Shown here: in pieces, positions 30,353 to 61,119 of the stretch
Position numbering within the stretch: position 1 is the first letter of the stretch
Layout of the letters: each line of letters begins with the position of its first letter
Sequence record: NC_027381.1
DNA length: 64,000 nucleotides
Source of the DNA: Escherichia phage Pollock
Reading direction: 5' to 3' (one strand)
Notes under the pieces: model-generated
The model's database searches: none
The model's input: the letters and a program-made list of their open reading frames with translations, nothing else
Told to the model about the DNA's origin: nothing
Position numbers and translations under genes: made by a program

Positions 30353-30377
30353 GAAGCCCTCTACGGAGGGCTTTTTA
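30353..30377 (+). terminator. Rho-independent terminator
   Basis: aagccctc-tac-ggagggctt stem-loop followed by TTTT. Confidence 0.75.
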
Positions 30378-30389
30378 ATAGGTATTTTT

Positions 30390-30623
30390 ATGACAATCAA
30401 AGTAAGAATGTTCCAAAATGTCTCTGGTACAGCTTATCAGAAAGTGTCATATAAAATCATTCAAGGGATTATAGAAAATCCTAATGATAAAGAAATTGAT
30501 GTTCTTCTTACTGGTTGGGAACATGCTAGTTCTAAATCAGTAATGAGAACTAAAATTTTACAACAACTAGAGTGGTTTAAGTCTCAAGGGTACACTGTCA
30601 TTTTTAATAATGAGAGACTTTAA
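30390..30623 (+). CDS. Hypothetical protein, 77 aa
   Basis: ORF only. Confidence 0.4.
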   Translation: MTIKVRMFQNVSGTAYQKVSYKIIQGIIENPNDKEIDVLLTGWEHASSKSVMRTKILQQLEWFKSQGYTVIFNNERL

Positions 30624-30625
30624 TC

Positions 30626-31009: not shown

Positions 31010-31433
31010 TATGCAAATTACTCTGAACCAAGATGAAATTCTTGAAGCTCTGAAGAACTATGCTTTCTCTGTTATCAACGTAGCTCCGGGTAATGATATT
31101 ACTATCGACCTGAAAGCTGGTCGTGGTGAGAACGGATATTCTGCTACTTTAGAAATTACTCCTCAACGTAAAGAAGTAAAAACTTCCAACGTACATACAG
31201 GTTCTACTGAAAATACTGTAGGACTTCGTACAGAAGTTGTAGAACGTACTGTTGAATCTGATAAAAGAGTTATGCATGAAGTAACTCCAGAACTTCCAGT
31301 AGAAGGAGTAGACATTATAGATACTGAAGCTAAAGACCCTGCTGCAGACATGACTGAAGAAGAAGTTGATGCAGAAGTAGATGCATTTATGGCTACCCAG
31401 AATCCAACTAAATCACTCTTCGCTCGTAATTAA
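31002..31433 (+). CDS. Acidic hypothetical protein with SSB-like C-terminal tail
   Basis: Asp/Glu-rich; C-terminus NPTKSLFARN nearly identical to the C-terminus of ORF 29608. Confidence 0.45.
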   Translation: MNNMQITLNQDEILEALKNYAFSVINVAPGNDITIDLKAGRGENGYSATLEITPQRKEVKTSNVHTGSTENTVGLRTEVVERTVESDKRVMHEVTPELPVEGVDIIDTEAKDPAADMTEEEVDAEVDAFMATQNPTKSLFARN

Positions 31434-31828: not shown

Positions 31829-31855
31829 AAGCCTCTTCCATGAGGCTTTTTCTTT
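31829..31855. terminator. Bidirectional terminator between convergent transcription units
   Basis: aagcctc-ttccatg-aggctt stem-loop flanked by an A-run upstream and a T-run downstream; sits between the plus-strand block and the minus-strand vRNAP gene. Confidence 0.7.
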
Positions 31856-37800: not shown

Positions 37801-40800
37801 TTTTAAACCAAGCTGAACAATAGAGTTAAATGGTCCATTAGTTACACCATCAAGCTCCAGCATCACATGAGTCTGGAATGAGGATTTACCTTGTTCTACT
37901 GCTAATTCATATTGAGCTTGTGCATATAAAGCATGGAGTGTTTTAGTTTTCTCCTTACCTGCTTTTACAGCTTCTAAAAGAACCTCTGCATCAGCATCAC
38001 TAATTGAATCTTGGTTTTCAGCAGCTTTTAGAATATTGATAGCATCTCTAAATAAACCAGTACTGATAGCTTTATTTAGCTTATCTCTGGCAGTCTCAGA
38101 AGAGAGTTTATCAACAGCAATATCCAATCCTTGAGCAATAGCATAATCAAGAAATGCACCATGTTGAGGATTGTTGAGTTCAATAGTAGAAGGTTCAACA
38201 GTAATTAATTCACGATGTAATTTAGCTGACTGAGGGTTTAAATCCCCTGAGTTAAGCATCATACGGAAGTTACTAATTACGTTATATGCAAAATAAATAG
38301 GTGTATTAGCCAGAGGTAATCCAGCTTCTGACATACGAGTTAAACCGTTAATCAGAGTATTAATATCTCTTTCAATAGTACGGTTAGAACCTTGAATGGA
38401 TTTCAGATGAGCACCATTAGCATTCTCTTCTGATTGAATGCCTAACATTCTACCAATCCATTCTGTACCTAATTTATCCAGCATAAGGTCATGAAGACCC
38501 ATGTTGATATAATGAGGTTGTTTACTGGCTTTGTTACGTGCAGCAAGCATCTTTTCAGGAATATCCTGACCACCACCATTTTTAACTTTAGTGCTCTGAC
38601 CTTTTGGTGGAGTACCAAAGTATGCTCCTGCTTTTTCTCTCTGAGGATTAGTTAATTGACCTAAGAGGTCATTGGAATCCTTCATTAAGTCTACTAAACG
38701 TTTAGCAGCTTCAGATTCTTCATTCATACGAATGAATATACGAGAGTTTTTAATGTTGGATTCATTTACTTTAGTAGAACCAACAGCAGCTAATTCACTG
38801 TTTTTAACAACAGATTCTTGAACCAGATTAGCATTAATCATTACGTTCAATACTTCAGTTGCTAGTGCTTTAGATACAGCATCACGAACAGAGATAGGAG
38901 TATTAGGGTCAGCATTAATACCTAAGATTCCAAAAATCTCTCTGCTTAAATAATCAATAACATTTTGCCGGTCTGTACCTACATTACGTAATAAATCTGT
39001 TTGCTCTACAGTAGGTTTAGTTTTGTTATCTAAACCAAGAATATCCATTACTGTACGGTCATCATTGAATGTAGTTTCAACTGCATTACGTACAAACCAC
39101 TGCATCATACCAGCAGTCATTGCTTCAATTACTGGCTGAGGTAAGAAGTAAACATTTTCACCATTGATATTTCTTACTTCACTAAAATATTCGACAGGGT
39201 ATGTTTCCCAGAAGATACGTTGACCTTCAGGAGTTAATTTACCCCAAGATTGAATTAACGATTGTTCAATAGCAGGGACTAAACCAGCAAATTGACGTAG
39301 TACTTTTACTTCTTTCTCTGTTACTTGTTCTGGTTTAATAAATCCTTTAAACAGATTTTGAATCTGAGTAATAGGATTAGAACCATTGGTAAAAATGTTA
39401 TTAAGTCTTCCAGAGAAATTAGAAGTTCTCAGGAATGCAGAACGTTTACCTGTAGGTTTAAACCATTTTTTAACTTGGTTAGTAGCCTGATAGTTCTTAT
39501 CTGCTTCTGAAGTAGATTTAGCATCAGAACGTACAGTTTCTGATTGCAGACTACTCAGAATATCGAAATTAACACCTTTATCTAAACCAAGTTCTAATTG
39601 AGACTCATCCATTAAATCAGTCTCAACTTCAGTTGGTTTTTCCTGAATCTGAATTTCAGATTCAACTACATCTGGTTTCTCAAATAGTTCTCCTTGAACT
39701 GGAGTACTAGTAGGAGCTTCTGTAACAGCTTCTGGCTGTGTTTCTACAGTCTCAGAAGGTGTTTGTACCTGTTCTTCAGAAACCTGTGCAGAAGCCTCTA
39801 TAGGAGCTTCTGATTCTTGAGTTGAGACTAATTCCTCTGTAGCAACTGGAGCAGATTGTGCTGGCACAGATACAGGTTTACCATCTACTAATTGACTAGT
39901 AATGGTATGTGCTTGACGAACAGCATTAGCATCATTACGAATTTCTTTGATTAATCCTTTAGAACGTACCGGATGATACGTCATAGGATTTCCATCTAAA
40001 GATAAATATGGTTGTCCTGTAGTTGGATTAATTACTTCTACAGGTTGATTACCAGTAAAGTTTTGAGCAGCCTGTTCAAATGCATTAGCTTTAGTTTCCA
40101 TGTGCTCTGCAAAACGGTTTAAATGGTCTAATAAACCTTGAGCACGAGCAGTATCCCCTAAAGATAATGCACGGAAGATACCTTGCTGATACTGTTGAAT
40201 ACCAATAAATCCATCAGAACCTTTACGTACATCTTCTCCTACTTGGCTCATTGCTTTACCAGTAGCAGAGATAATTTTTAATTTATCTACATCCTGCTGG
40301 TTCAAACCAATGGTTTCTGCTGAATTAACTAAACGGTCAGCAACTTCTGGAGTAATAGAAGATGCATCTAAATTCATTTGAGCCAGAACAGATTTAATGT
40401 TCTTTTGTACTTCAGGAGATTTATAAGTTTCTGGAGTAATTTCAGAAGGTAAAGACTCCATAATCTTATTCATTTCTTCTGGAGTCAGTCTGAAGCTTTC
40501 AGCAGTAGTTTTAACTGCTTGTACATCAGGATGGTTCAGCACAGCATTGATATTATCAATAGCTGTTTGATACTGAGCTTTCTCTTCTTCTGGTGCAACT
40601 TCCATCTGTGCTTGAATTTGAGGTAAAGCTTCCTCATAAGCAGAGATAACATTATTACCTACAACAGCTAAATCTCTACGAGAAGCTTCATCCAAATTAC
40701 GTTCTTTAATTGCACGGGAAATTCTCAAAATAGAATCTGGAGAACTAATTTCCTCTTCAGGAATAGCTTTAAATACTTCTTTAGCAGCAGGTTCAGTAAC

Positions 40801-42468
40801 AGCATCAACAGCTTTAACTACAGTTGGTTCTGCTACTGCTTCAGCATCTGTTTGTTGTACTGTTTGTTTAACTGATTCATTAGCAGCAGATACAGTATTC
40901 CTAAAAGATTGTGCTCTGGATTCTGCTTTACGGGCTTCTCTTGCTTCAAATGCTTCACGACCTTGTTGAGCACCTTCTTGAATTGCTCTAGGTGTTTCAC
41001 TGATAGCCGAGCCAAAAGCACCCATACCCGCACCAGCAATAGCAGACTCAACAGCGTTTGAACCAATGTCTTCAGCAAGGGACTGAGATTCATCAGCAGA
41101 AGTCCGTATGCCGAGGTTAGAAGCAAATTGACCAGTAATCCCTTGGGAGGTTTCTTCAATAGTTTCTTTGAAAGCATTGTTAAGAACTCGTGAGGAAGCA
41201 CTAAAGAATCCCGTACCTTCAAGTAAGGAAGGAGTGAATATACGAGATTCAAATGGAGCAGCAACCTTACCAGTCAGAGCACCAAGAGTACCTGCTACCA
41301 AAGCAGTGACATTACCTGTTTGAGTACGTACTTGTCTTCTGGCTTGCTCTGGAGACATACCATCAGCAATTAAATCACGATACATAGGTGATTTTTCTGC
41401 TAATTGCTTATCAGTCATTCCATCAATCTGGTCTAATGTTTGTTGGGCATTAGAACCTGCTTCTTGGAAACCTACATAACCAACCAATGCTCTTTCAGCA
41501 GCATCCTGAAGACGTTTTCTACCATACTGAGTTGAAGCTAGCTTGGTAGCAAAATCTGCACCATATTCTTCAGCTAATTGTTTAAATGCTCCACGAGAAG
41601 CAATCTTACCTACTAAACCACCAGTTAATATATCTGGAGCAGATTCAGCAATAAGTGTAGTTAATGCTCCCGGAGCACCACCATATTGTTCAGCAGTATT
41701 AACAAACTGACGTAATTGTTCTTTAGCCCCTGCAACTAAAGGATTATCACCTTTAGCTATATCAGCAGCTTCACGAGCTTCAGCACCTTGTTTAAATCTC
41801 TCTTTTTCTGCTTCAATTACAGATTGTTCATATTGAACACGCGGAGAATATTGAGAACGTTGTTCTTCAACATACTGTTTTAATGGTACATCAATACCCA
41901 CTTGTTCTAATAAAGTAGGTTGTCCTAATTGTTCTTCTTGACCAGTAACATTAGCAATTAAATCTTGAGTATTTTGTAATGCTAAGTTACCCAAACCAGT
42001 AACAAATCTAGCTGTATTACCTGCCCATATCTGTGCAGCATTACCTACATCAGATAATTCTATAGGAGCATTTTCAAATATATCTGTATTGGCTTGAGCA
42101 ATATTTAAAGACAGTTTGTCTCTAGCTGCCTGAGGACCATATTTCTGCTGTAATGCAGATAAAGGCATATCTCTTAAATCAGCCAAATATTGCTCAGAAG
42201 GATTAGTTTGAGTAGCAGTAGTAGTAGTTCTTTGTCCAGATAGCATCTGATTCATCTGTTCTCTTGTATATTTAGGACCAGATTCTGCTAACTGGATTGC
42301 TTGCTGTGCTCTTTGATACTGTGGAGAACCTACAGCAAAGTCTATTTCTACCCCGGGTACTGGAGTACCTAACTCTAATTTCTTCTGTTGAGTAGCTATA
42401 TTTAATTGTTGTGTTTTTTGTAAGGCAGCATTAGCTAATTCTTGCTGTTTCTCAAATCCGGTGGCCAT
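31855..42468 (-). CDS. Virion-encapsidated RNA polymerase (vRNAP; N4 gp50-like), 3537 aa
   Basis: Single 10.6-kb ORF; a protein of about 3500 aa adjacent to the virion-protein block is the hallmark of N4-like podophages; synteny with the downstream late genes matches N4. Confidence 0.85.
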   Translation of the reverse strand: MATGFEKQQELANAALQKTQQLNIATQQKKLELGTPVPGVEIDFAVGSPQYQRAQQAIQLAESGPKYTREQMNQMLSGQRTTTTATQTNPSEQYLADLRDMPLSALQQKYGPQAARDKLSLNIAQANTDIFENAPIELSDVGNAAQIWAGNTARFVTGLGNLALQNTQDLIANVTGQEEQLGQPTLLEQVGIDVPLKQYVEEQRSQYSPRVQYEQSVIEAEKERFKQGAEAREAADIAKGDNPLVAGAKEQLRQFVNTAEQYGGAPGALTTLIAESAPDILTGGLVGKIASRGAFKQLAEEYGADFATKLASTQYGRKRLQDAAERALVGYVGFQEAGSNAQQTLDQIDGMTDKQLAEKSPMYRDLIADGMSPEQARRQVRTQTGNVTALVAGTLGALTGKVAAPFESRIFTPSLLEGTGFFSASSRVLNNAFKETIEETSQGITGQFASNLGIRTSADESQSLAEDIGSNAVESAIAGAGMGAFGSAISETPRAIQEGAQQGREAFEAREARKAESRAQSFRNTVSAANESVKQTVQQTDAEAVAEPTVVKAVDAVTEPAAKEVFKAIPEEEISSPDSILRISRAIKERNLDEASRRDLAVVGNNVISAYEEALPQIQAQMEVAPEEEKAQYQTAIDNINAVLNHPDVQAVKTTAESFRLTPEEMNKIMESLPSEITPETYKSPEVQKNIKSVLAQMNLDASSITPEVADRLVNSAETIGLNQQDVDKLKIISATGKAMSQVGEDVRKGSDGFIGIQQYQQGIFRALSLGDTARAQGLLDHLNRFAEHMETKANAFEQAAQNFTGNQPVEVINPTTGQPYLSLDGNPMTYHPVRSKGLIKEIRNDANAVRQAHTITSQLVDGKPVSVPAQSAPVATEELVSTQESEAPIEASAQVSEEQVQTPSETVETQPEAVTEAPTSTPVQGELFEKPDVVESEIQIQEKPTEVETDLMDESQLELGLDKGVNFDILSSLQSETVRSDAKSTSEADKNYQATNQVKKWFKPTGKRSAFLRTSNFSGRLNNIFTNGSNPITQIQNLFKGFIKPEQVTEKEVKVLRQFAGLVPAIEQSLIQSWGKLTPEGQRIFWETYPVEYFSEVRNINGENVYFLPQPVIEAMTAGMMQWFVRNAVETTFNDDRTVMDILGLDNKTKPTVEQTDLLRNVGTDRQNVIDYLSREIFGILGINADPNTPISVRDAVSKALATEVLNVMINANLVQESVVKNSELAAVGSTKVNESNIKNSRIFIRMNEESEAAKRLVDLMKDSNDLLGQLTNPQREKAGAYFGTPPKGQSTKVKNGGGQDIPEKMLAARNKASKQPHYINMGLHDLMLDKLGTEWIGRMLGIQSEENANGAHLKSIQGSNRTIERDINTLINGLTRMSEAGLPLANTPIYFAYNVISNFRMMLNSGDLNPQSAKLHRELITVEPSTIELNNPQHGAFLDYAIAQGLDIAVDKLSSETARDKLNKAISTGLFRDAINILKAAENQDSISDADAEVLLEAVKAGKEKTKTLHALYAQAQYELAVEQGKSSFQTHVMLELDGVTNGPFNSIVQLGLKDVNQDLLNKLEKGGLFYGQSDRLYNDAAEEPGFLDLYKTAAAGSQQYINNMMDAYSNIPNRLAALKNKSRQFQQKEMRDIERLKNQVRVTLAASKLIGDVNIVEGEDVEHPIQIGRGLLKNPVTVTVYSGGANAINRKIAMGIANGYYEAITEALRAVDSATNQEDRDAAIAHINDLTNTTNELTTAQVFRNGSWVKIGAPINLGKDVTKFEFTSEQIEAITQNIKIGIGAAVNESIANEFGTVINRGKMMVYAAAVMHEVFMSRWNKVVEAKEKELREAGKLSKYESLSQQQYNEIKRELITQMPIFNSWFTAGNTDAAKLNEGILLSEEGRVTFDIYRMESRGRRNLDGKMRRATFGVDTPTYTEPGTRVMPLLVQSVEAAMQAIARDINPNNALNVFDGYINAVAHLDTGSQAINQGVLQSWNEFDLLQDFTNRFEQAMEGVNLTEELGPDADTRLEQSFRGIMEMIGADETNSPTSPEVLEAFTTLLKKEAATQTAIKQGLLGGEAVTSINQMTGANIPFNVQNGKQTDKEAIDTRTPLEQLIANTELPTMESVSLPKGRVTIPPTRQMIEALAKNGRNVSGHDGIKVLSKGDVIAAIKEAAKSLPSRQNRITSFVLDKIANSIPEDINVYVGSPEALSAVQQEMTPDTKVEFNNSFLGLTQGQNIYIGSQSIETVMHELIHAATANAVHNYYSNPEALTPAQKVEIASIEALMTKFVNEYSSTNPETDSVVDLINNHIASGDMAQATAEFIAWGLVNPRMIDAMTKKTITGTVTKVLKQLAESIKRLFAIGSNPDITSYWTRLLGHTVALADATNPVKSRDTTSYAQQNANNINRLDAETLFNKLDAGKASQEHVNHLTDTLDYLQSNIIKVIKNTGQQISGLEHYQDKLLVDSIDPEIDDSPNALIAHGFNMSEKEAFVFKMLQVSMKYGLENFSPSVLVARSLYSQARENLKVEDFLTDPNNRSANEMALAKQRYDAVFGNTAITTDATGRTNRLANFIALAETNEQLRNKLSQISVKRTRQNQATSLRERIGDLTNMILTWLSGLATKSLRDTNIASRLSKLAKNISHVDSQARDNLFTRIGRGTEEITEATQDRLRAFGNSIRKQLSKVEKKVPKSVAFGITVGAAVFNEQDAHDVREAITHIYMTIHQDGKLGTIAELINEFIGSNETNSSIHTLLTQKNMAADRARQIIREMVPGMIEKTFVSLNQNEKEAIQRVVANTDMAYLFANGYDLVRLNELLTNPNELAKEIDLIESQLQKAGAQNSAFYIKSAHGLAKQMVHGVSPLAYQLSNAAAIARLIGTGRERPSNDAVEIATQLIDTLASLSALTELSQADKETVSNVISREMTKGEPDNNGMTFTLKYYESLKGAELAKSGNNYSLAAVKGFTPTITDPNKKVIIASIKDEPSLSRRGYTRGAQVKRDPADTDKTPMYYYHSNNGGEPRWIAGVMSTLQSTVGGVNPITGRSVNGSMTPGAWKTSEKNKVSANKQAAINDLFDASKPMPQNYDGQMQPVLNRAGSIMGYSYQMPRANREAQLNVDNDFTKVLAAWEGRIAEEIQAAKYNEMLLERLGEIYKKDAREGKAYQYITIDENSTDHQLKEIYELMPIEMKEAAKRIWPNGKIKVRKDLLNNAFGYREPSVLNLWTGQTNFSKEFQKAFVNIAETFLGKNAARYLRLGERGLMEFVKEMKDWIVVRSVVVSAGNILSNMVHLATVGISPITMAKDMSTAVLAAEEYRRNEKLINEYSHYLAVNHNPRMAEEYQRKISELKDSQARNPVADLIKAGLLPTIAEDLGQQDDYSLKDKLLTKMDEYTSGIPDSVKRVAKEITLSRDSNVYFLLNRSIQYGDFVAKYSLYKHLTTRSRNPMDKDSALNRVMDEFVNYDILPSRTRFYLDAIGLTWFLNYKIRIQKIILRTIRENPLRALFLMFGNTAESGLPNIMEANLATGSLSYNVGMGTALNGFTIHPLVSLY

Positions 42469-50753: not shown

Positions 50754-52874
50754 TTAAATTTCACTTAATGGCTTACCAGATTTAAGAATGTAATCAACAA
50801 TCTTAGTTTGAGTTTGACTTTCAGCTTGTGCAGAAATCTTCTCAACATCTCTGGCTTGTTTAACCCCAGACTCTTGTTCAATATAATCCAAGTTTTTAAG
50901 GTCTGTATCACTTTGAACATTTTGAGCTTGGGTAGCTTTATACCCTGCATTAGCTCTGTTTTCAATTGCTTTAGATTGCTTCTCAGCGATTTCAGCTTCT
51001 AAAAGTGCAATTTCTAGTTCAGCTTTACGTTGTGCTAATGGGTCAGGTTGTGGCTGATAGGATTCAATTCTTTTAGCTAAGTCAGGCATATTTCTTAAAC
51101 GAGCAATATCACTTAATACCATTTGAGTCATTTCAAAAGGCATACTATTACCCATTGTTTGTAGCATAAATGCCAATTCTTGAGCTTTTTGGTTATCAGC
51201 TTCAGCAGTAGAGATACTTAGTTTAAGGTCAAAATCACCAGCTAATTCATCTCTTCGTACTCTAACAAATTCATCATTAGTAATACGTACTACTTCTTCC
51301 TCAGATAAGAACTCAGCATTCATAGAAACAAACTTACGTCCAATTTCTATAATACCTTGAGCCAATCTACGTAAAATTCCTAATTCACGTTTAGAAGCTG
51401 CATCTAATGCACCACGAATACCAGCAGCAACATCACCTAATGCTTGTGATGCAATACCTTGAGAGAAGGATTTAACACCTGTAAGAGATTCTGCTTCATT
51501 ATTCTGATACTGAATCATTACAGCAGCAGATTGAGGAATCTCAGGGGCTGTATGCATGTAGATACCTTGTCTTGGGTCTACGTTAGCATTGAACTCATAA
51601 TCCTCACCCTTATCAAACTTACGTCTGTTGGTAATATCCAGCATGTCTTTACGAATACCAGTTTGACCGTTAGCACTACGAGCCAAGATATCAATCATTG
51701 CTCTAGTAGTAGCTCCAATAATCTTCTGGTTATCTTCCAGTAATGCACCATCTGGTTCACCATATACAGAACGAGTAACAGGTAAATATGGAACCACAAT
51801 AAATGGAATTTGTTTATCTGGATAAGGATTCTCTTCAAGACGAATCATAGTATTACCTACAAAAGTAGCTACTATAGGTACAGTCTTACCATTACCTGAA
51901 ATATCCCACCAACCCCAATACTCATAAGCTACAAATTTCTTACGAGGTTCATCTTTAAAATTAAAACCAGATGAATCTTCAGTTTCATGGTCAGGGGTAT
52001 TTAAAGGGCTAGTTGAAGATACAGAAATCTTATCCAGATTCTTATATCTACCATCTTTCTCTAAATCGGATTTAGAAGTTTCAAAACTATAGATAACAAA
52101 CTGTGCCTGAGAAATATCACCATTACATGTTGGGTCAATTACTACGTTTTGAGGATTAACTACTTCAACAGTAGGATGGTTTTTAATAACTTTCTCATAC
52201 TCAATTTCTTCAGTACCAGTTTGTACTGCTACATATGCACCATTGTTCTCATATGAGTAATCTACTGAAGCAATAATATCATCAGGAAGATTATGATATT
52301 CATTTGGATTATTAACTTTAAGTTGTAGAGCTTCTTGAATAGCCTGTACTTGGTCTTCATTCTCAGCAGGATAATAAGCATATACAGGTACAGTTTCTTT
52401 AACTGTTTCTGTTTGACTTACCCAACCAACTCTAGCAATAACAGTCCCTTCATTAACAGCAGCACGTACATACTCATCAATGAAACGAACCTTATTTATC
52501 TTTATATTGAATTGGTAATTAAGAACTAACTGGTTTTGAATAGCAGCATCTCTGTCTTCCCATGTAGCAGGAGAAACAGTAAATAATTCATCAGTACTTA
52601 AGAAGGGTTCTGTAAGAGCAGAGTATCTCCACTCAGCTTGCTTACGAATAAGCATAGGTTGAACAGAAGAACGTCCCGGACTTTTCTTTGGTTTGGCTGA
52701 ACCTTCAATCTTTAGGTTATTAAGCCAAGTAGTGATTTGGGACATCTGAGCACTATGAGAGCTATATGCAGCATTATAGTCTGCCCTCAAATCTGAGACT
52801 GTAGGTTCATTTTTCCAGTCTGTTAGATTGCTGGTTTCTTCTGGGTTTACTATACGTAAATCGTCTTTAGACAT
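50754..52874 (-). CDS. Portal protein (N4 gp59 position)
   Basis: 706-aa ORF at the head of the capsid-assembly gene order portal, scaffold, capsid. Confidence 0.55.
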   Translation of the reverse strand: MSKDDLRIVNPEETSNLTDWKNEPTVSDLRADYNAAYSSHSAQMSQITTWLNNLKIEGSAKPKKSPGRSSVQPMLIRKQAEWRYSALTEPFLSTDELFTVSPATWEDRDAAIQNQLVLNYQFNIKINKVRFIDEYVRAAVNEGTVIARVGWVSQTETVKETVPVYAYYPAENEDQVQAIQEALQLKVNNPNEYHNLPDDIIASVDYSYENNGAYVAVQTGTEEIEYEKVIKNHPTVEVVNPQNVVIDPTCNGDISQAQFVIYSFETSKSDLEKDGRYKNLDKISVSSTSPLNTPDHETEDSSGFNFKDEPRKKFVAYEYWGWWDISGNGKTVPIVATFVGNTMIRLEENPYPDKQIPFIVVPYLPVTRSVYGEPDGALLEDNQKIIGATTRAMIDILARSANGQTGIRKDMLDITNRRKFDKGEDYEFNANVDPRQGIYMHTAPEIPQSAAVMIQYQNNEAESLTGVKSFSQGIASQALGDVAAGIRGALDAASKRELGILRRLAQGIIEIGRKFVSMNAEFLSEEEVVRITNDEFVRVRRDELAGDFDLKLSISTAEADNQKAQELAFMLQTMGNSMPFEMTQMVLSDIARLRNMPDLAKRIESYQPQPDPLAQRKAELEIALLEAEIAEKQSKAIENRANAGYKATQAQNVQSDTDLKNLDYIEQESGVKQARDVEKISAQAESQTQTKIVDYILKSGKPLSEI

Positions 52875-53035
52875 TTCAAATATCCTTTAGTTACTTTGCA
52901 AGCAGTATATATGTTTATCCTCTTTCTAAACATACTTTGTCTTCTTGCGTAAGAATTATCTAATATTTCTTTGGATTTCTATTGTATTCTTGACGAACTT
53001 CTAGAGAAGTATTTCTTATTTACTGGAGGATTCTT

Positions 53036-53410
53036 ATGCATGAACCAGTTTCTGGTACAGCTATTACATCAGGACTATGGGCTACTACTCTACTATCCTA
53101 TTGGGCTGGTATACCTTCTGGGGTAATCATTGGTTCTTTTGCAGGTGCAGTTGTCTATGTGTTAACTAACTCTGATGTTCCTATCTTTAAGAGATTAACT
53201 TTTTTCTTAATTTCTTTTCTTGTAGGGATAATAGGAGCAGGATATACAGCTAAAGTTATTGAGGGATTTACTCGTGTATGGACTCAATCAGATGTTCATG
53301 TAGACCACTCTATAGGGGCACTCATAGCAGCAGCACTAGCTATTAAAGTACTATTCAATTTAATAGCTAAAGCTAAGGTTCCCAATGTTTCAGCAGGGGG
53401 AAACCAGTAA
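53036..53410 (+). CDS. Holin-like membrane protein
   Basis: Multiple predicted transmembrane segments; first gene of the plus-strand cassette ending in endolysin and spanins. Confidence 0.45.
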   Translation: MHEPVSGTAITSGLWATTLLSYWAGIPSGVIIGSFAGAVVYVLTNSDVPIFKRLTFFLISFLVGIIGAGYTAKVIEGFTRVWTQSDVHVDHSIGALIAAALAIKVLFNLIAKAKVPNVSAGGNQ

Positions 53411-53700
53411 TGACAATCATAGAGTATTTTGCTTCTTTTTCTCCAATGGAGTTAGTCAATGCATTTGTCTGTATAAGCATTGCTCTAAGATTAATGGTAT
53501 TTAGACAAGGAAATGCCAAACATAAACTAAGTTATTCAATTTTTGCTTATGTTCTTACAGTATCATCTGTTGCAATTGCTATACGTATAATTATGAAGCA
53601 CTATACAAATATTGACCCTTGGGAAGTATTTCTCAACTCGTCAATTTTAATTGGTGTATTTTGTGCTAAAGGTAATGTAGCAAAGTTACTAAGGGTATAA
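53410..53700 (+). CDS. Small membrane protein (holin or antiholin candidate)
   Basis: Hydrophobic segments (FVCISIALRLMVF, LTVSSVAIAIRII, SILIGVFCA); ATGA-coupled between the holin-like gene and the endolysin. Confidence 0.4.
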   Translation: MTIIEYFASFSPMELVNAFVCISIALRLMVFRQGNAKHKLSYSIFAYVLTVSSVAIAIRIIMKHYTNIDPWEVFLNSSILIGVFCAKGNVAKLLRV

Positions 53701-53702
53701 GT

Positions 53703-54203
53703 ATGTCTCGTGATATTTCAAATAATGGATTGAAATTTACTGCTGCTTGGGAACAGTTAAGAACCAAAGCATATAGAGCTACACAAAATGAGAAGTACCT
53801 AACGATAGGGTATGGTCACTACGGTCCTGATGTTAAACCGGGTGACACTATCACTGCTGATGGTGCTTTAAATTTACTGTACAAGGATATGGCTAAAGCT
53901 GTTCGTAAAGCATCAGAATTAGTTCATCCATCTTTTAATCAAGCTCAATTCGATGCCATTGTAGACCTATGTTTTAACGTAGGTATTGGTGTTATCGAAA
54001 AAGATAATGTTCTTGGTGATTTCGATGATGCTGTTCGTTTAGGGGATATTCCCAAAGCCAGAGAAATCATGGGGCAATTTATCTATCAAAATAAAAAACC
54101 ATTATTAGGATTAAAAAGACGAGCAGTAGGACGTATTGCTCTGTTTGATGGTAAGTCTTGGTTAGAAGCAGAAGCTATCGGGAGAGGAGTTAAATCTCTA
54201 TGA
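53703..54203 (+). CDS. Endolysin, GH24 (T4-type lysozyme family)
   Basis: GLKFTAAWEQLRTKAYRATQNEKYLTIGYGH and QAQFDAIVDLCFNVG match lysozyme-family conserved regions (catalytic Glu region, TIGYGH, DALvs.aFN.G). Confidence 0.8.
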   Translation: MSRDISNNGLKFTAAWEQLRTKAYRATQNEKYLTIGYGHYGPDVKPGDTITADGALNLLYKDMAKAVRKASELVHPSFNQAQFDAIVDLCFNVGIGVIEKDNVLGDFDDAVRLGDIPKAREIMGQFIYQNKKPLLGLKRRAVGRIALFDGKSWLEAEAIGRGVKSL

Positions 54204-54748
54204 TAAATAAAACCAAGTTATTAATGCTTGGTTTGACTGCTATAGCTCTCACTTCGGTGGGAGCTTTTTTATCTTGGTATATAGCCAGTAATAAGTATGA
54301 ATATGAAATAGCTATATTAAAGTCAGATTACAGTCTGAAATTAAAAGCTATATCAGATGAAGCAGCATTCAAACTAGGTAATGAAATAGTACGTAATAAC
54401 CAACTACAACAAGAATTGAATGAATTAGATTCTAAATATTATAGAGATTTAGAGTATGAAAAAGAACGTAATAAACAACTTAGCATTGATGTTAGTAATG
54501 GTACTCGTAGGGTGCAATTCGCAGAAACAAGTCTTGCAACCTGTAAGCAATCCAGAAATACAGGAACAATCTCCCCCAGCATGGGTAATGGAACCACCAT
54601 CGAACTCTCTCCAATTGCTGGACAAAACATTCTCAATATCCGAGAAGGAATTATTGCAGACCAAATTAAATTGAGATATTTACAAGATTACATTCGTAAA
54701 GTAGAGGCATCCAGATATGGCAAAACTAACATCCAAACAAAGAAATAA
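54200..54748 (+). CDS. i-spanin (Rz-like)
   Basis: N-terminal transmembrane helix LLMLGLTAIALTSVGAFLSWYIA followed by a charged coiled-coil-like periplasmic domain; directly downstream of the endolysin. Confidence 0.6.
   Translation: MINKTKLLMLGLTAIALTSVGAFLSWYIASNKYEYEIAILKSDYSLKLKAISDEAAFKLGNEIVRNNQLQQELNELDSKYYRDLEYEKERNKQLSIDVSNGTRRVQFAETSLATCKQSRNTGTISPSMGNGTTIELSPIAGQNILNIREGIIADQIKLRYLQDYIRKVEASRYGKTNIQTKK
54456..54674 (+). CDS. o-spanin (Rz1-like lipoprotein) embedded in the Rz frame
   Basis: Fully nested in an alternate frame of the Rz-like gene; signal peptide with lipobox LVGC (MKKNVINNLALMLVMVLVGCNS); Pro-rich mature part. Confidence 0.6.
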   Translation: MKKNVINNLALMLVMVLVGCNSQKQVLQPVSNPEIQEQSPPAWVMEPPSNSLQLLDKTFSISEKELLQTKLN

Positions 54749-54917
54749 ACTTCCTGATTCAGCTTTTGCTGGTCCAGATAGGAGTTATCCGGTACATGAT
54801 AAAGCTCATGCAGCTAATGCTAAAGCTAGAGCAACACAGCAATATGAAGCAGGTAATCTCTCTAAGTCACAAAGAGATAAGATTCGAGCCAGAGCTAATA
54901 AAGTTTTATATGGTTAA
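54717..54917 (+). CDS. Small basic protein, 66 aa
   Basis: ORF followed by a strong bidirectional terminator. Confidence 0.35.
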   Translation: MAKLTSKQRNKLPDSAFAGPDRSYPVHDKAHAANAKARATQQYEAGNLSKSQRDKIRARANKVLYG

Positions 54918-54920
54918 AAT

Positions 54921-54946
54921 AAGCCCCCAAATAAGGGGGCTTTTTA
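54921..54946. terminator. Bidirectional terminator between the lysis cassette and tail fiber genes
   Basis: aagccccc-aaataa-gggggctt stem-loop with an A-run upstream and a T-run downstream. Confidence 0.7.
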
Positions 54947-54950
54947 TTAC

Positions 54951-57806
54951 TTACTTATTCTCAAGTGCATCTATTCTACTAACCAATACATTAACAGTTT
55001 CTGCTAATGAATCAATTTGATTAATAGTAGCTCTCAGACACCACCAAAGAAGTTCTTCTTTTCTAAAGCGATATCGAGTACCTGCTTCTAATGCAGGACG
55101 TACTAGAACTTTTTGAGATTCTCTTACAAGTACTAAGGTTGTACCACTTAATAGCTCTCCTTCATCAGAGTAGATAGCAGGTTGTACAGGTACTTCTTCA
55201 TACTCTGCTGGAATCTCTTCATATTCTGCTTCAACAGCATCCCAAGAATCTAAACAGAAAGCACTGTATTTTCTCCAATCCAGTCCATGTTTAGTCATGA
55301 TATCAATTGCTGCTTGCACAGTAGGACCAGAATGTAATCTGGCATCATCACCTTCTTCTTCAATTCGTTGTAACCATCTCCATACAGAAGGTAAACGAGC
55401 TATTTCTGCAAATGCAGCAATCTCTGATGAATTGATATCTCTTGGTTCATCTTTCAATGTTGCATCAGATACAACAGTCGGTGAATTATTAAAGTAAGCA
55501 TTACTGAATGCTTTACTAGAAGAACCAATATTATAGGTATTGTTAGTTGAAGGTAAGAAGTTACCTTTAATATCTGTATCCATCTGCATGAATGCAGTGC
55601 CGTTACTACGGGCTGCAATTACATAAGCGTCAGCAGAATCGTCATAAATACCCAGATTCCCGGATGTTGATACCTGGAAAGCTCCCGCCTTCAGCGTGGT
55701 ACTGATAGTCATGCGCTTCTGGGTTTTGTCATCCGATTTAATATTCACGCCCTGCAGGTATGCCACATTCCAGCGATTTGGCGATGACCCCAGATTCATT
55801 GCCTTGTCCTGGTCGGGATGAAATGACGGCGAGACCGGACTCAATAATACAGACCAGGTCTCGCTGCCATCGGTACAATAAAGCCTTGTGCGCCCCGCCG
55901 ACTGAGTATCGTTCATTGAGTAAAGGTTAATCCCGCCACCGCTCAACAAATTCACGTCAGCGCGTATTTCCAGACAATCGTGCACGGCGTTCAGGCGGTG
56001 TTTCCACTGAACGAAGCGGCCTGTGTATTCTCCGGTTCGGAACGCATCCCCGAACAAACGAAAAACAGCAGCAGAAGTGTCTGTATCCGGAGCCTCCTTT
56101 CTGACCTCAAATAACGGGCGATGCGAGCGCAGATTCTGCTCATAGGCTGCCACCTGGAAGTCTTCATTGGGTGACAGGGCAATATTTACAGCATTGGGAC
56201 ATAGAAAAAGACTGGCATGACTATCAGGATAAGCTACACCAAAAATTGAATACCCAGTACCATCATAAGGTTCTACAGAGACAATAGCTTTAGTACGCTT
56301 TGTTCTTGTACCACGAGTATAAGTCTTTGTTGAATCCCATTGACTTGCATTACTTGTTCCATAAGTAGTAGGTGTCCAATAAGTTGGGTTTACTGGAGAA
56401 TACCCGGAAAAATTAGCTGTTCTTGCAGCAAAGTATTTTCCTTCAAATAAAACAACATCTGCTGTGGCATACCAAAAATCCATATCAAGCAGATATAGTT
56501 TACCTTTATATAAAGCTAATCCTTCTGGTTCTTGTAAACATGGATAACCTAATTCTGCATTACCAAGCATTTTCTCACGTCCATACTTAGCACGCACACC
56601 ATCTACATTAAACCATCTAATAATCTCACCTGTGAATAAATTATAAATAACAATACGGTGGGTTAAGAAAACACCATTGTATCCATAATATACATATAGA
56701 TATTGGTCATCACTTGCCATCCCTTGGAAAGATTGAGCCACCATAGGGATATTATTTATATGAAATCTATATTTAAATGTTAAAGAAACACGGTCAAATA
56801 CATAAATTATACGGTGGTCATCTCTGTTATACTGTACGTGAACAGGCTCACCTATAGTTTCAATAACTAATGTTTTACCACTTTCAGATAATGCAAGTGT
56901 GATAATTTCATCGTTGTTATAGAAGTCTGATTTAAATACTTCTACTCTAGTAATATTTGATGTAGTAGTATCTCTTCCTTTCCAATTAATTATATTGATA
57001 CCTTTACTGTCTTCAGTAGGTAAATACAAAATTACACCACCATTCTCATATATAGCCCCGATACTCTGATGACCTATATCTTCAAATACTGGAGAGAAAG
57101 AAATAACAGTAGGGTTTTCATTGTCCCCTTCTGGATTAAATGTTGTTTCAACAATTCTAACTCCACCTGTTACTGGTTGATGGATAAACATACGTAAACC
57201 ATCTGGAGTTTCACAAATACAGAATCCCTGACTTAAATTTTCTGCACCTTCAAAAATTCCTGAATAATCAATATCATGTACAACTTTATGTTGTAGAGCT
57301 ATATTATCAACAATAGGGTTATGTGTTGCTAAAGTTCCTACAGGAACCCATGCACCAACATGAATACCTCCACTTTTTTCTGGAGTAGAATCTGGTTCAA
57401 CTACTTTAGGTAGTTCTCCATCCCATCTATATAAACCAGAAATACTTGTAAGTACTTCATTCTTAGTAGTTATAGTAGTTCCTGTAGTAAATGAACCAGG
57501 TACAGTTATAAACTCTTCTCGTTGTGCCCCTAATTCACCTAAATCTACAGAACCTTGTGAATGTACAAGTACAGCATCAGTACCAAGACTGATGGCAGTA
57601 GTACCAGAAGAAATGTCAGTAGGTAAGGAATAAGCTCTTTGTGTTGTCTTATCATAAATAACCTTATAACCACCTAAATCTACTCCTTCTGAGAAGTAGA
57701 CTACTTCACTCTGTTTAACACCAAACTTACGAGCAATAGCTTGTTTGTTGGTTAAGATTCCAGTTGAACCTCTACCACCTTGGCTGAACATTTCGTTCAT
57801 ATACAC
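54951..57806 (-). CDS. Tail fiber or tailspike with C-terminal intramolecular chaperone (peptidase S74-like) domain
   Basis: C-terminal region contains SDATLKDE (S-D-x-x-x-K cleavage-site motif) and DDARLHSGPTVQAAIDIM (S74-like core); contains a locally GC-rich internal segment. Confidence 0.6.
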   Translation of the reverse strand: MYMNEMFSQGGRGSTGILTNKQAIARKFGVKQSEVVYFSEGVDLGGYKVIYDKTTQRAYSLPTDISSGTTAISLGTDAVLVHSQGSVDLGELGAQREEFITVPGSFTTGTTITTKNEVLTSISGLYRWDGELPKVVEPDSTPEKSGGIHVGAWVPVGTLATHNPIVDNIALQHKVVHDIDYSGIFEGAENLSQGFCICETPDGLRMFIHQPVTGGVRIVETTFNPEGDNENPTVISFSPVFEDIGHQSIGAIYENGGVILYLPTEDSKGINIINWKGRDTTTSNITRVEVFKSDFYNNDEIITLALSESGKTLVIETIGEPVHVQYNRDDHRIIYVFDRVSLTFKYRFHINNIPMVAQSFQGMASDDQYLYVYYGYNGVFLTHRIVIYNLFTGEIIRWFNVDGVRAKYGREKMLGNAELGYPCLQEPEGLALYKGKLYLLDMDFWYATADVVLFEGKYFAARTANFSGYSPVNPTYWTPTTYGTSNASQWDSTKTYTRGTRTKRTKAIVSVEPYDGTGYSIFGVAYPDSHASLFLCPNAVNIALSPNEDFQVAAYEQNLRSHRPLFEVRKEAPDTDTSAAVFRLFGDAFRTGEYTGRFVQWKHRLNAVHDCLEIRADVNLLSGGGINLYSMNDTQSAGRTRLYCTDGSETWSVLLSPVSPSFHPDQDKAMNLGSSPNRWNVAYLQGVNIKSDDKTQKRMTISTTLKAGAFQVSTSGNLGIYDDSADAYVIAARSNGTAFMQMDTDIKGNFLPSTNNTYNIGSSSKAFSNAYFNNSPTVVSDATLKDEPRDINSSEIAAFAEIARLPSVWRWLQRIEEEGDDARLHSGPTVQAAIDIMTKHGLDWRKYSAFCLDSWDAVEAEYEEIPAEYEEVPVQPAIYSDEGELLSGTTLVLVRESQKVLVRPALEAGTRYRFRKEELLWWCLRATINQIDSLAETVNVLVSRIDALENK

Positions 57807-57852: not shown

Positions 57853-60800
57853 TTAGTAAAATTTCTTTTCAGTAGAAGATTCTAAAACAGAAAGACGTTC
57901 TTCTATTCTTTCTAATCTTCTGCGTAGATAAGCAGCCTCAAGCCATAAGCATTGGTCTGCACGTATTCCCCAACGATTACCAGCCTCTCTTACGAGAACT
58001 TTTTCACCAGTATCATATTCTTCCTCTACTTCTGTTTCCACACCATCAATAATGGTAGATACTTTTCTAGTTGCTAATACTGGCTCATAAGAGTCTTCCC
58101 ATTCGTCATAACAAAGAAGACCAAATTTAGTTCCATCTAAACCATGAGCAAGGAAAGCATCTCTTACCTGTTGAGCTATTACACCAAAATGCCAACGAGC
58201 ATCATCATTTTTAAGTTTGATAGCAGAGAGCCAACGGAAAGCTATGATTCTTACATCTTCCCAAGCATCCAGAATTGCATCTCCATCATATTCTGAAGAC
58301 AGAGATGAGCTAAGTTCACTGGTAGTTACTGGCTCTGTTTTCTCTCTTTCATCAGATGTATTTATTGTTCCAGATACAGCATAAACCTGAGTAGGTCTAT
58401 TATCTGCAACACCAAGACTATAGGAGTTATCCAGATAAGGATGCCAATGACCATTTGGACTTACTTTCCATCTCCATGTGTCATTACTTCCCAAATGTAA
58501 ATCAGCTCCATTTGCAGCCATTAAAGCTACATTGGAAGTGCTCATGTACATCTGGAAATAACCAACGCCTTTTCTCTGCCATTCATAAAGCAAGCCTGTT
58601 TCCTGTTCGTTGTTGAACTTTAATGCTTTTATAGGTGAATTTTCTCCCCATGTTGTATCACCCGAATAAATTACATGAGGAACCACCTCAGGATTATCAG
58701 AGATACATATTTCTTTAGATGGTAGAGATAGCGTTCTTTTATCTCCTGCACCAAGCGCATAAATCAGAATGGTGCGTCTGGTTGCCCCCATAACATCAGA
58801 ATGCTCAGATACTATTGTTACCGATGGATATAGAACACCATCGTAATCAACAAAATGCATTCCTTCTGATTCACGGAATGTAGGAGTAGAACCAATGATT
58901 CTAGGTAAATCAGTATCACCTAAATCAGAGATAGCTTTCCGTACATCATTACCTAACAAGTCACAACTGGATAAGTACTGGGTTTGTCCAAATGTAATAT
59001 TCCCGCAATACATATACAGATGCGAGCCATCAGAACAAAATCCACTAAGTGATGTGGTTTCATCACCACCGACTTGTGAAAGTTGAAGAGTAAACTCATG
59101 AGTACACATAGATGAATAATCACCTTGTGTATCAAAAATATCTGTAGAGAAAATGCGGAATGTTTGATTGTTGTAGTCAGCATTATCAGTAAATCTAACA
59201 ATCAACCATTTACCATCAAGAGAAATAGTAGGTGTAGTTGAGCTACCTGCTGTACGAGTTTCTTCTACAACTCTAAACAATTCAGGCGCATCAATTTCAC
59301 CGTCTGTGTTACTTCTCCAAGAAAATCTAACAATCCCGTGAGAACCGCCTACAGAAAAATCAAAATCAGTATGGGTAGTAGAACCTGCTGGTGTATCTGG
59401 TGCTGTAGTCCATAACTTAATTGCATTATTTAAATTCTGTACTGCTATACCCTGATGACCCAATCTGTCTTCAGGTAACATAAAGTCAGTAGAACTATTA
59501 ATAATTCTTGAGTCAGCAGAATACTTATTCCAGATAGAAACAGTAGTGGCATTACCATCTATTTCTGTATTGTGGTTAGAGTAATAAGCCCTATCTACAG
59601 GGTCATATGTGAATGTCTGTAGTGTTCTTATTTGTCCACGACCCTGAGCAATAGGAATGAATCTTACTGCTGAATTAGATTCTCGACCTATAGTATAAAC
59701 ATCCCATGCTGGCTTCTTATTAGTAAGAAGCTCCCCATTCATAGGAATGGATTTTCCGTTTATAAGCCAAGTACCATTAATATAGATATTTTTAAAGAAG
59801 GTTTTAGTAGTGGCATATACTTTGCCATCCATATCTATAACCTTGGATGTAACATCTGATTCTAGTTGCTCAAATGCACTAGTATCATCAGTAACACCAT
59901 TACCTACTATTCCCCATGCACGAGGGTCATACTCATCTTTCCAACGAGCTATCTGTAAATCAGGATATAAAGTAGCACCATCAGGATTACTAATTTTATC
60001 CTGAAGGTCTAAACCAGTAATTACTTCATCTAAGATAACTACTACGTTACCGGGAGTATAAGTAAGTTTTCCATCTGCTACTGTAGAGATATAAACATTT
60101 CTTAAAGCAGTAGGTAACCTATAGATTTTCTGTTCATCTACAGAATAGATAATAGTTTTATTATCTAATGCCTGACTGGTATTAGTACTTAAAATTACTT
60201 CTGAATTTTTTACATTAGTGGCTCTTGCTACCTCTTGAATAGTACGGTCAGCAATCTCAATAACTTCTTGCTCACCTCCAATCTGAATAATCAAACGGTC
60301 ATTAGCAACCAATGGTTCAGTAAGAGTAATGGTTTGAGCATTAGCATCTACAAAGTAGGATTGAGTTTGTAATCCCTTATAGAATCTCAAACCATTCTTA
60401 AATACCGCAGGAATATCCTGAAAGGTATATGGAATATTGATAGTAGTTTCACCACCAACAGCAGCACCTTCATTGTATAACCAGTTAAAAATAGTCCAGT
60501 TATCAATATTTGGATTATCAGGTACAGCAGGAGTACCACTAAGAAGTAAAACTACTTCATCTCCTTCCTCTAAAGCTTGAGATAATGTAACCAAGTTATT
60601 GGAAATAGAGAATTGAAATCCATAACCAACAGATTGCATGTAGCCATTAACAATAATAAATGGAACACTTACAGTTCCATTGGGTACTGTAATAGTAGTT
60701 TCTCCACCTAAAGCAAAGCCACTCTTATAAACATAAGGAATGTAGGAACCACCACCATTTCCACCAGACGAGGATGTACCTACAACAATCCAACTACCTG

Positions 60801-61119
60801 TAGCTCCAGATTCATTAGGAATGATTCCAGAAGTATCGTTTTCTACATACAAATAATCTGTATAGATTATGTAACTAGAATCAAAAGTATTATAGATACG
60901 TGCATACTTGACAGATACAGGAAGTGCTTTTAATTCATCTTCTGAAGTAACACAAATAAGTACTCCATACTTATTTAGAAATTCATAGATAAAGTGAATT
61001 TCTCCTAAGCTATCATATACAGCTTTAACTACGTCATATGCTGTACCAATAAACTTTTCTACTAATGGAGCATTGTTACCACAACAAGTATTAGTAGTTC
61101 TGATTGACATTATACCCAT
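57853..61119 (-). CDS. Tail fiber or tailspike with C-terminal intramolecular chaperone (peptidase S74-like) domain
   Basis: C-terminal SDEREKTE motif and DDARWHFGVIAQQVRDAF (matches the G-x-IAQEV core of S74 chaperone domains); 1088 aa, Gly/Thr/Ser-rich. Confidence 0.65.
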   Translation of the reverse strand: MGIMSIRTTNTCCGNNAPLVEKFIGTAYDVVKAVYDSLGEIHFIYEFLNKYGVLICVTSEDELKALPVSVKYARIYNTFDSSYIIYTDYLYVENDTSGIIPNESGATGSWIVVGTSSSGGNGGGSYIPYVYKSGFALGGETTITVPNGTVSVPFIIVNGYMQSVGYGFQFSISNNLVTLSQALEEGDEVVLLLSGTPAVPDNPNIDNWTIFNWLYNEGAAVGGETTINIPYTFQDIPAVFKNGLRFYKGLQTQSYFVDANAQTITLTEPLVANDRLIIQIGGEQEVIEIADRTIQEVARATNVKNSEVILSTNTSQALDNKTIIYSVDEQKIYRLPTALRNVYISTVADGKLTYTPGNVVVILDEVITGLDLQDKISNPDGATLYPDLQIARWKDEYDPRAWGIVGNGVTDDTSAFEQLESDVTSKVIDMDGKVYATTKTFFKNIYINGTWLINGKSIPMNGELLTNKKPAWDVYTIGRESNSAVRFIPIAQGRGQIRTLQTFTYDPVDRAYYSNHNTEIDGNATTVSIWNKYSADSRIINSSTDFMLPEDRLGHQGIAVQNLNNAIKLWTTAPDTPAGSTTHTDFDFSVGGSHGIVRFSWRSNTDGEIDAPELFRVVEETRTAGSSTTPTISLDGKWLIVRFTDNADYNNQTFRIFSTDIFDTQGDYSSMCTHEFTLQLSQVGGDETTSLSGFCSDGSHLYMYCGNITFGQTQYLSSCDLLGNDVRKAISDLGDTDLPRIIGSTPTFRESEGMHFVDYDGVLYPSVTIVSEHSDVMGATRRTILIYALGAGDKRTLSLPSKEICISDNPEVVPHVIYSGDTTWGENSPIKALKFNNEQETGLLYEWQRKGVGYFQMYMSTSNVALMAANGADLHLGSNDTWRWKVSPNGHWHPYLDNSYSLGVADNRPTQVYAVSGTINTSDEREKTEPVTTSELSSSLSSEYDGDAILDAWEDVRIIAFRWLSAIKLKNDDARWHFGVIAQQVRDAFLAHGLDGTKFGLLCYDEWEDSYEPVLATRKVSTIIDGVETEVEEEYDTGEKVLVREAGNRWGIRADQCLWLEAAYLRRRLERIEERLSVLESSTEKKFY

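Follow-up and report, generated by a model that had tools for sequence, protein, structure and literature searches.

In Escherichia phage Pollock (NC_027381.1), six tightly packed open reading frames (ORFs) occupy the plus strand at positions 53036..54917 of the 64,000-nucleotide stretch analyzed here (hereafter, the window), between a portal gene and a tailspike gene that are both encoded on the minus strand. What does this inverted block encode, how is it transcribed within a region whose genes face the other way, and how far does it differ from lysis modules already known? Our analysis indicates that the block, extending from the portal-side gap to a hairpin shared with the tailspike gene, is very probably the host-lysis operon of an N4-like (Humphriesvirinae-type) podophage, and that, though divergent, it is an ordinary representative of a kind of lysis cassette that has already been annotated and published for the closest relatives.

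Identification of a Probable Plus-strand Lysis Operon

All five lysis proteins of the block exceeded the curated Pfam cut-offs, with hidden Markov model (HMM) E-values spanning 1e-11 to 1e-26, and the PHROGs assignments were concordant for all five (holin, holin, endolysin, and Rz-like spanin for the last two). The holA product matched Phage_holin_8 (PF16931) at 90.7 bits (cut-off 26.4), holB Phage_holin_3_7 (PF05449) at 71 bits (cut-off 25.4), the endolysin Phage_lysozyme (PF00959) at 85.2 bits (cut-off 22.3), Rz both Phage_lysis (PF03245) at 54.6 bits over residues 56-167 (cut-off 25.4) and phrog_2466 at 166 bits, and Rz1 both PF06085 at 43.8 bits (cut-off 27.9) and phrog_3198 at 89 bits (E = 1.8e-25). 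From holA to orf66 the junctions are, in order, TAATG, a 2-nt gap, ATGA and a 32-nt overlap, and a good Shine-Dalgarno sequence precedes every start in the cassette except that of Rz1, with GGAGG lying 7 nt 5' of the holA ATG. Because starts and stops overlap or nearly abut, translation is probably coupled, in a layout typical of a single plus-strand operon.

The first-pass annotation of this DNA had proposed a plus-strand lysis cassette between the minus-strand portal and tail genes, comprising two membrane proteins, a GH24 endolysin, an Rz-like i-spanin and a nested Rz1. Every ORF was recovered where it had been placed, and both the profile HMMs and the relatives agree with these five identities; what had been overlooked is a sixth ORF, orf66, which lies within the same interval.

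The window also encodes a virion RNA polymerase of 3537 amino acids (31855..42468, minus strand), and its portal protein is 87-90% identical to the portals of Salmonella phage FSL SP-058, Shigella phage B2 and Klebsiella phage Pylas, all of which belong to the Schitoviridae, Humphriesvirinae. Judged from these sequences, the source is an N4-like podophage of the Schitoviridae, of Humphriesvirinae type. The same inverted cassette is present in seven GenBank relatives (Pylas, MH899585; MY01; KpCHEMY26; FSL SP-058; Salmonella phage As2; B2; and Salmonella phage TR2), most of whose records annotate holin, holin, endolysin and spanin, and the same layout was found in all nine of the N4-like IMG/VR loci. 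The inverted cassette has been described in print for Klebsiella phage Pylas (PMC6856287), and a reversed lysis cassette is already known for this lineage. When the cassette was compared with GenBank phages by megablast, the best match reached 75% nucleotide identity.

On the strength of homology, we assign the canonical holin-endolysin-spanin pathway to these genes with considerable confidence. By analogy with lambda and P22, the products of holA and holB, as small holin-family proteins with three transmembrane domains (TMDs), would accumulate in the inner membrane and form holes at a set time; the soluble, signal-less GH24 muramidase would then pass through these holes and degrade the murein; and Rz, anchored in the inner membrane, together with Rz1, an outer-membrane lipoprotein, would span the periplasm and fuse the two membranes after loss of the wall.

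Several observations weigh against this assignment. The canonical E-x8-D/C-x5-T triad is not found in the endolysin, which reads E17-x8-A26-x7-T34. Mature Rz1 contains no Cys beyond the lipidated one, so that a lambda-style Rz1 disulfide dimer cannot form. A lambda-type dual-start motif was found neither in holA, which starts MHEPV, nor in holB, which starts MTIIEY and has its next Met at residue 13, and without this motif neither gene is marked as an antiholin; moreover, the literature on PF16931 and PF05449 gave a list mention only, with no experimental test of any member found. A scan of the portal-holA gap for the sigma70 consensus (-35 and -10 with 16-18 nt spacing) gave no promoter; the gap has only conserved -10-like hexamers lacking a -35. 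Finally, a conserved terminator-like hairpin lies 45 nt into Rz, and if this hairpin works, the cassette is not transcribed uniformly as a unit.

Table 1. Genes, candidate regulatory elements and hairpins of the lysis cassette and its borders (window coordinates).
Feature	Coordinates	Strand	Length (aa)	Remarks
holA	53036..53410	+	124	three hydrophobic segments; PF16931 / phrog_198
holB	53410..53700	+	96	membrane protein; PF05449 / phrog_217; start overlaps holA stop (TAATG)
endolysin	53703..54203	+	166	soluble, GH24-type; PF00959
Rz	54200..54748	+	182	i-spanin; PF03245, phrog_2466; start overlaps endolysin stop (ATGA)
Rz1	54456..54674	+	72	o-spanin; +1 frame, wholly within Rz; PF06085, phrog_3198
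orf66	54717..54917	+	66	phrog_16160; last gene; 32-nt overlap with Rz 3' end
Hairpin 1 in Rz	54210..54234	+		AAACCAAGU...GCUUGGUUU; RNAalifold, 12 genomes: 9 pairs, none broken
Terminator-like hairpin in Rz	54244..54275	+		9-bp stem AGCUCUCAC/GUGGGAGCU, UUCG loop, then UUUUUUAUCUU
Divergent intergenic gap	52875..53035	.		161 nt between portal (-) and holA (+); conserved blocks in alignment with six relatives
Candidate -10 TATACT, portal operon	52904..52909	-		5/6 match to TATAAT; in block GCAGTATATATG, invariant in 7 genomes; ~30 nt 5' of portal ATG
Candidate -10 TATTCT, lysis operon	52985..52990	+		in block GTATTCT, invariant in all aligned relatives; no conserved -35
Palindrome ACTTCT-AG-AGAAGT	52997..53010	+		~25 nt 5' of holA ATG; arms ACTTC/GAAGT kept
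Shared hairpin	54921..54942	.		AAGCCCCC-AAATAA-GGGGGCTT; between convergent orf66 (+) and tailspike (-)
Portal gene	50754..52874	-		SU10_portal, 517 bits
Tailspike gene	54951..57806	-		Tail_spike_N + Peptidase_S74

The Endolysin

The closest solved relative of the endolysin is PDB 8hp8, the endolysin mtEC340M (E = 4e-54), whose parent EC340, from E. coli phage PBEC131, is muralytic in zymogram (PMC8886149). In 8hp8, 6h9d and 8app, the catalytic Glu belongs to a conserved EG/EQ motif, and Glu17 of the window protein aligns with it. The Ala at the canonical GH24 Asp position also occurs in the zymogram-active EC340 (8hp8), and Glu30 of the conserved NEK motif may stand in for the missing Asp. 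Hydropathy analysis revealed no hydrophobic window anywhere in the protein, N-terminus included; the enzyme therefore needs a holin to exit the cytoplasm and is of the soluble, holin-dependent kind and not of the signal-arrest-release (SAR) or signal-peptide type.

holA and holB

The features that define three-TMD, class I-like holins (small size, TMDs, a charged C-terminus, an endolysin neighbor and membership in a holin family) were found in both holA and holB. By hydropathy, the holA protein has three hydrophobic segments and a C-terminus ending in ...KAKVPNVSAGGNQ, and that of holB has two clear TMDs and one weaker one and ends in KGNVAKLLRV. By analogy, these proteins would form the membrane holes, with the roles of holin and of partner or antiholin presumably divided between them.

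An alternative to which we give only slightly less than an even chance is that just one of the two is a holin, the other being a regulator of timing or an antiholin, in line with the annotation of Pylas, or serving a non-lysis function such as superinfection exclusion. In the Pylas and KpCHEMY26 records, the label is "antiholin/holin" for the first gene and "holin" for the second, the two proteins come from different families, and their divergence is unequal: holA is 85% identical to its counterparts in B2 and SP-058 and 69% identical to that of Pylas, whereas holB is 70% identical to that of B2. However, each protein matches a family named as holin, and because the dual-start motif is lacking from both, the "antiholin" label of the Pylas record is unsupported by the holA and holB sequences; nor did the literature searched yield experimental data on PF16931 or PF05449. 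Furthermore, the holA-holB pair is retained in three distant, non-N4 cassettes (L039, L040 and L062), which fits a two-component holin and a holin-antiholin pair alike.

Conserved Hairpins in the 5' Region of Rz

Hydropathy places a single N-terminal TMD at approximately residues 7-28 of Rz, and Cys115 is invariant in the alignment of relatives. The 5' end of the gene additionally carries two hairpins, both of which lie within its first 75 nt and are present in 12 of the 12 N4-like relatives examined, the first being as well conserved as the second. The second, terminator-like hairpin folds at -15.7 kcal/mol (z = -2.7), and its stem and a run of six to seven T are kept in all 12 of these relatives while the loop varies. 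When nucleotide identity was compared across four clades, two peaks emerged within the cassette, one in the Rz 5' region (0.81-0.86) and one in the Rz/Rz1 overlap. Synonymous-codon identity is likewise 0.80 in Rz codons 4-30, compared with a maximum of 0.66 for any 27-codon window of holA, holB or the endolysin. A hidden overlapping ORF was ruled out as the cause of this conservation, since no ORF in an alternative frame with a conserved start or frame was found beneath the conserved Rz 5' end on either strand.

We consider it possible, although rather unlikely, that the second hairpin and its U-tract constitute a working partial intrinsic terminator or attenuator, which would leave mRNA for holin and endolysin more abundant than that for spanin and orf66, or else provide a stabilizing 3' end. 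Its terminator-like geometry and folding energy, the retention of stem and T-run around a variable loop, the synonymous constraint and the fact that conservation occurs with no alternative-frame ORF to explain it all speak for such a function, as does the observation that late transcription in N4 uses the host RNA polymerase (RNAP) (PMC4496689), an enzyme responsive to such signals. On the other side, covariation of the two hairpins was not significant: 214 of 500 shuffles reached the observed score, there was one compensatory pair, and most of the changes were one-sided transitions. Neither hairpin is present in distant Rz homologues, and the region that forms the second one also encodes the Rz TMD. 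Moreover, the site falls at an endolysin/Rz recombination junction seen when B2 is compared with SP-058, and a recombination linker or an exchange of recent date could account for high identity there. The conserved Rz 5' end may instead combine a recombination linker, itself conserved, with constraint from the TMD.

Only tentatively, then, can we describe the locus as a Humphriesvirinae-type lysis operon with a regulatory RNA in the first 75 nt of Rz (two hairpins, the second an intrinsic terminator with U6-7) that would act as an attenuator or mRNA-end element separating spanin and orf66 expression from that of holin and endolysin, and that ends in orf66, one of a very large, unusually conserved family of phage proteins of ~66 amino acids. 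If this description is true, the Rz-internal hairpin would be a case of intra-operon tuning of spanin dosage; unless the hairpin is functional, the cassette offers nothing new for lysis biology.

Transcription of the Cassette

The flanking genes lie on the minus strand, and more than 21 kb of minus-strand genes separate the cassette from the nearest plus-strand gene upstream, which ends at 31433; a promoter of its own is therefore required. Four conserved blocks were recognized in the divergent gap between the portal gene and holA: GCAGTATATATG (the reverse complement of which holds TATACT), TCTAAT, GTATTCT and ACTTC-n-GAAGT. TATACT and TATTCT would be candidate divergent -10 elements that lack -35 boxes. 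The palindrome upstream of holA is present once in the window without mismatch, and its center varies among the relatives (AUA, ACC, UAGA, UUAA); it may be a stem-loop in the 5' untranslated region or an operator. ACTTCTNNAGAAGT, GCAGTATATATG and TATTGTATTCTT were considered as repeated promoter elements and dropped, as their recurrence in the window does not exceed chance, and a search for a middle-promoter motif found no k-mers common to the plus-strand intergenic gaps of the window.

Near the left end of the window, the plus strand carries three hairpins, each with a 5-bp stem and a TTC loop (GAGTC-TTC-GACTC at ~61..85, CCGTC-TTC-GACGG at 1499..1525 and GCGAC-TTC-GTCGC at 1551..1577) and each followed by a T(A/G)GTGGA(G/A)(C/T)AAT tail. 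The holA palindrome was rejected as a hairpin promoter of the virion RNA polymerase (vRNAP) type, having neither the TTC loop nor the TGGTGGAGTAAT-like tail of these three left-end hairpins.

At the distal end of the cassette, the hairpin shared by orf66 and the tailspike gene fills the 33-nt space between them. It has an 8-bp stem with six GC pairs, folds at -17.1 and -16.8 kcal/mol on the two strands, and is followed by U-rich tails on both (TTTATTACTT on the plus strand and CTTATTTTAA on the minus strand). With these sequence features it is predicted to be a bidirectional intrinsic (rho-independent) terminator, at which transcripts from either side would end. The first-pass annotation had bounded the cassette by a divergent intergenic region and by a bidirectional terminator at 54921, and both borders hold, the latter as a prediction. 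It had also called the cassette independently transcribed; this part of the claim is deduced from gene orientation, the gap having yielded no sigma70 consensus promoter.

In N4, the late genes, lysis genes included, are transcribed leftward by the host sigma70-RNAP directed by N4SSB, and late transcripts run opposite to the early and middle transcripts (PMC4496689). In phage B2, gp45 is a capsid decoration protein found in virions (PMC11654681), and it is encoded in the same plus-strand block as the lysis genes. Because the B2 block also encodes this virion protein, we infer that the plus-strand block is expressed late. The opposing view, that the cassette is not of the late sigma70/N4SSB type and has a middle-type promoter used by the phage RNAPII, such that the lysis proteins would be made earlier and timing would be set by holin triggering alone, seems to us improbable. 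The cassette does share the polarity of the early/middle block (1..31433), in a phage type whose late transcripts run the other way in N4, and the gap did not yield a sigma70 consensus; yet the virion decoration protein encoded in the B2 block points to late expression, both conserved gap elements are -10-like, the middle-region gaps of the window gave no shared motif with which the cassette could be compared, and the holA palindrome lacks the tail of the left-end hairpin promoters of vRNAP type.

The Embedded Rz1 Gene

Rz1 begins 256 nt from the Rz start. Its signal sequence, MKK-NVINNLALMLVMV-LVGC, comprises a basic n-region, an h-region and a lipobox at residues 17-20 that ends in Cys20; the nested position, the alternate frame and the LVGC lipobox had all been proposed beforehand, and the coordinates, the PF06085 match and the inspection of the signal peptide agree with that proposal. 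The mature protein has 53 amino acids, including six Pro, and begins C-N-S. In the E. coli Lol pathway, Asp at position +2 is the signal for retention in the inner membrane. Rz1 has no Asp at +2 after the lipid-modified Cys, consistent with sorting to the outer membrane.

The Rz1 frame is open in seven of seven close relatives, with a signal peptide ending in Cys retained, and the mature protein is strongly conserved (QVLQPVSSPxIQEQxPAAWAMEPxSNSLQL). Relatives of Rz1 are encoded at 65 IMG/VR loci, 53 of which, by simple criteria, keep both a lipobox and the fully embedded layout. Among relatives the Rz1 frame is better conserved (61-74%) than the Rz frame (51-64%). Third-codon-position identity of Rz is 0.82 inside the Rz1 overlap, vs. 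0.65 and 0.54 outside it, with amino-acid identity equal across the three parts; similarly, synonymous-codon identity of Rz is 0.85 in the overlap, compared with approximately 0.5 in segments belonging neither to the overlap nor to the 5' end. We conclude that the embedded ORF is a genuine gene, under selection. The contrary suggestion, that it is a chance frame and that the phage relies on Rz alone or on another outer-membrane disruptor, could appeal to the weak Shine-Dalgarno sequence (AGAG) before its ATG and to its absence from the annotation of several GenBank records (SP-058, B2, MY01), and is close to refuted by the family matches, by the frame, signal peptide and lipobox Cys kept in all relatives, and by the dual-coding signature. 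By analogy, Rz and Rz1 would form a complex and bring about membrane fusion in lysis.

orf66 and Other Features of the Window

orf66 encodes a basic protein beginning MAKLTSKQRNKLPDSAFAGPDRSYPVHDKAHAANAKARATQQ..., which shares 89-94% identity with the orthologues of B2, SP-058 and MY01, against only 51-64% for the adjacent Rz; it is absent from Pylas and KpCHEMY26. It falls into phrog_16160, which has no assigned function, and into a family comprising at least 2388 protein clusters, of which the best 120 are at least 68% identical. More distant homologues (57-59% identical) occur in phages of Acidobacteria and Acetobacteraceae, and the genes neighboring orf66 homologues are inconsistent, including nucleotide-metabolism genes, primase, lysins or head-tail genes. 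A Pfam search gave only a sub-threshold match to DUF6582, NCBIfam gave no match, and a literature search found no paper mentioning DUF6582. In a PDB profile search, the sole match was a weak 25-residue hit, at the FAGPxRSYP motif, to the crAss001 cargo protein gp45 (7qog_M; E = 0.0018). The AlphaFold model, with a predicted local distance difference test score (pLDDT) of 81, shows a less ordered N-terminus followed by a helical hairpin, and a Foldseek search with this model returned no match below E = 0.29. The orf66 orthologue in B2 is gp44, which is not in the B2 virion protein table (PMC11654681). We treat orf66 as co-transcribed cargo.

The plus-strand block of the window ends after orf66, whereas the relatives add three plus-strand genes, including the decoration-protein gene. 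No homologue of the three genes that follow orf66 in B2 (5254..6627 of locus L006), gp45 among them, was found in the window, the gap compared being 54918..54950. The phage may therefore lack a B2-type decoration protein.

Both the tailspike gene next to the cassette and a second one at 57853..61119 (minus strand) encode a C-terminal Peptidase_S74 chaperone domain. A tblastn search of the first tailspike against the loci of the closest relatives returned nothing but a 46-amino acid N-terminal stretch in TR2, and its residues 152-951 are approximately 50% identical to tail fibers of ~45-kb E. coli and Raoultella podophages; this combination indicates a swap of the receptor-binding module in the first tailspike. 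Elsewhere in the window, a homopolymer of 11 C occupies 33..43, close to the left end, and five copies of a ~50-nt repeat with ATGAATAAAGAATTAATA...TTATTCTTA occur at the starts of small ORFs on the plus strand at 2456..3643, which suggests a family of paralogous early genes.

Comparison with Known Lysis Systems

The Humphriesvirinae and Triduovirus N4-like cassettes resemble that of the window most closely. They occupy the same slot (adjacent to the portal gene, divergent from it and ahead of the tailspike) with the same inversion, their order is likewise PF16931, PF05449, GH24 and Rz with embedded Rz1, and the Rz-internal hairpin is common to them; amino-acid identity to the window proteins is 47-85%. 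The affinities of the window differ by gene, with holA and holB nearest to Ithacavirus, the endolysin nearest to the B2 allele (84%) and Rz nearest to Pylasvirus (63%). Single genes have been exchanged within the lineage: in B2 and SP-058, holA (100%), holB (100%) and Rz (99%) are identical or nearly so, but the endolysins just 69% identical. The swapped alleles lie at 4001..4501 of L006 (B2) and 3180..3671 of L003 (FSL SP-058), and the comparison shows a clean replacement of one allele within the cassette, with the window carrying the B2 type. Exchange of genes within the cassette is ordinary lysis-module mosaicism. The direct value of the present analysis lies in correct annotation, given that several GenBank records of relatives lack both orf66 and the embedded Rz1.

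The endolysin has close kin in different phage backgrounds as well. The EC340/Kagunavirus-type endolysins belong to the same GH24 subfamily and have the RAT-x-NEKYLTIGYG motif in common with it, and those of K1G/Kagunavirus-type siphophages are 61-75% identical to the window enzyme. In these EC340/K1G-Kagunavirus phages, the adjacent holin is "class I holin-like."

The classical S-R-Rz/Rz1 cassette of lambda and 13-19-15/Rz1 cassette of P22 follow the same three-step lysis logic, with Rz1 embedded in the +1 frame of Rz. By tblastn, the window Rz is 30-40% identical to the Rz proteins of P22-like and lambdoid phages, and the P22 lysozyme (2anv) matches the window endolysin. Relatives of the window Rz/Rz1 were found in P22-like and lambdoid phages and in many prophage-derived contigs, and three non-N4-like contigs (L039, L040 and L062) show all four genes in the same order, at 34-42% identity. 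In contrast to lambda and P22, the window has two separate holin-family genes in place of one dual-start gene, its holins belong to different families, its mature Rz1 is without internal Cys, and no Q-type antitermination context is evident.

Coliphage N4 (NC_008720) has its lysis genes, gp63-gp62-gp61-gp60, in the same slot, with the tail genes on one side and the portal gene gp59 on the other, and in the same functional order of small membrane proteins, endolysin and spanin. However, in N4 these genes face the same way as the late block whereas the window cassette is inverted, and the families differ: the N4 endolysin is GH108 with PG_binding_3, its holin DUF7940 / phrog_1356 and its spanin phrog_6197. 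A tblastn search of the window lysis genes against N4 gp60-gp63 gave no match at 1e-3. In a Vibrio N4-like phage, the endolysin gene is also co-oriented and lies just upstream of the portal gene. The Enquatrovirinae endolysins have been described as SAR-type N-acetylmuramidases (PMC11395603), unlike the soluble endolysin of the window. Set beside N4, the Pollock cassette is a case of lysis-module replacement at a fixed slot, with a co-oriented GH108 (SAR-type) module in N4 and an inverted, lambdoid-type cassette with a soluble GH24 endolysin in its place here.

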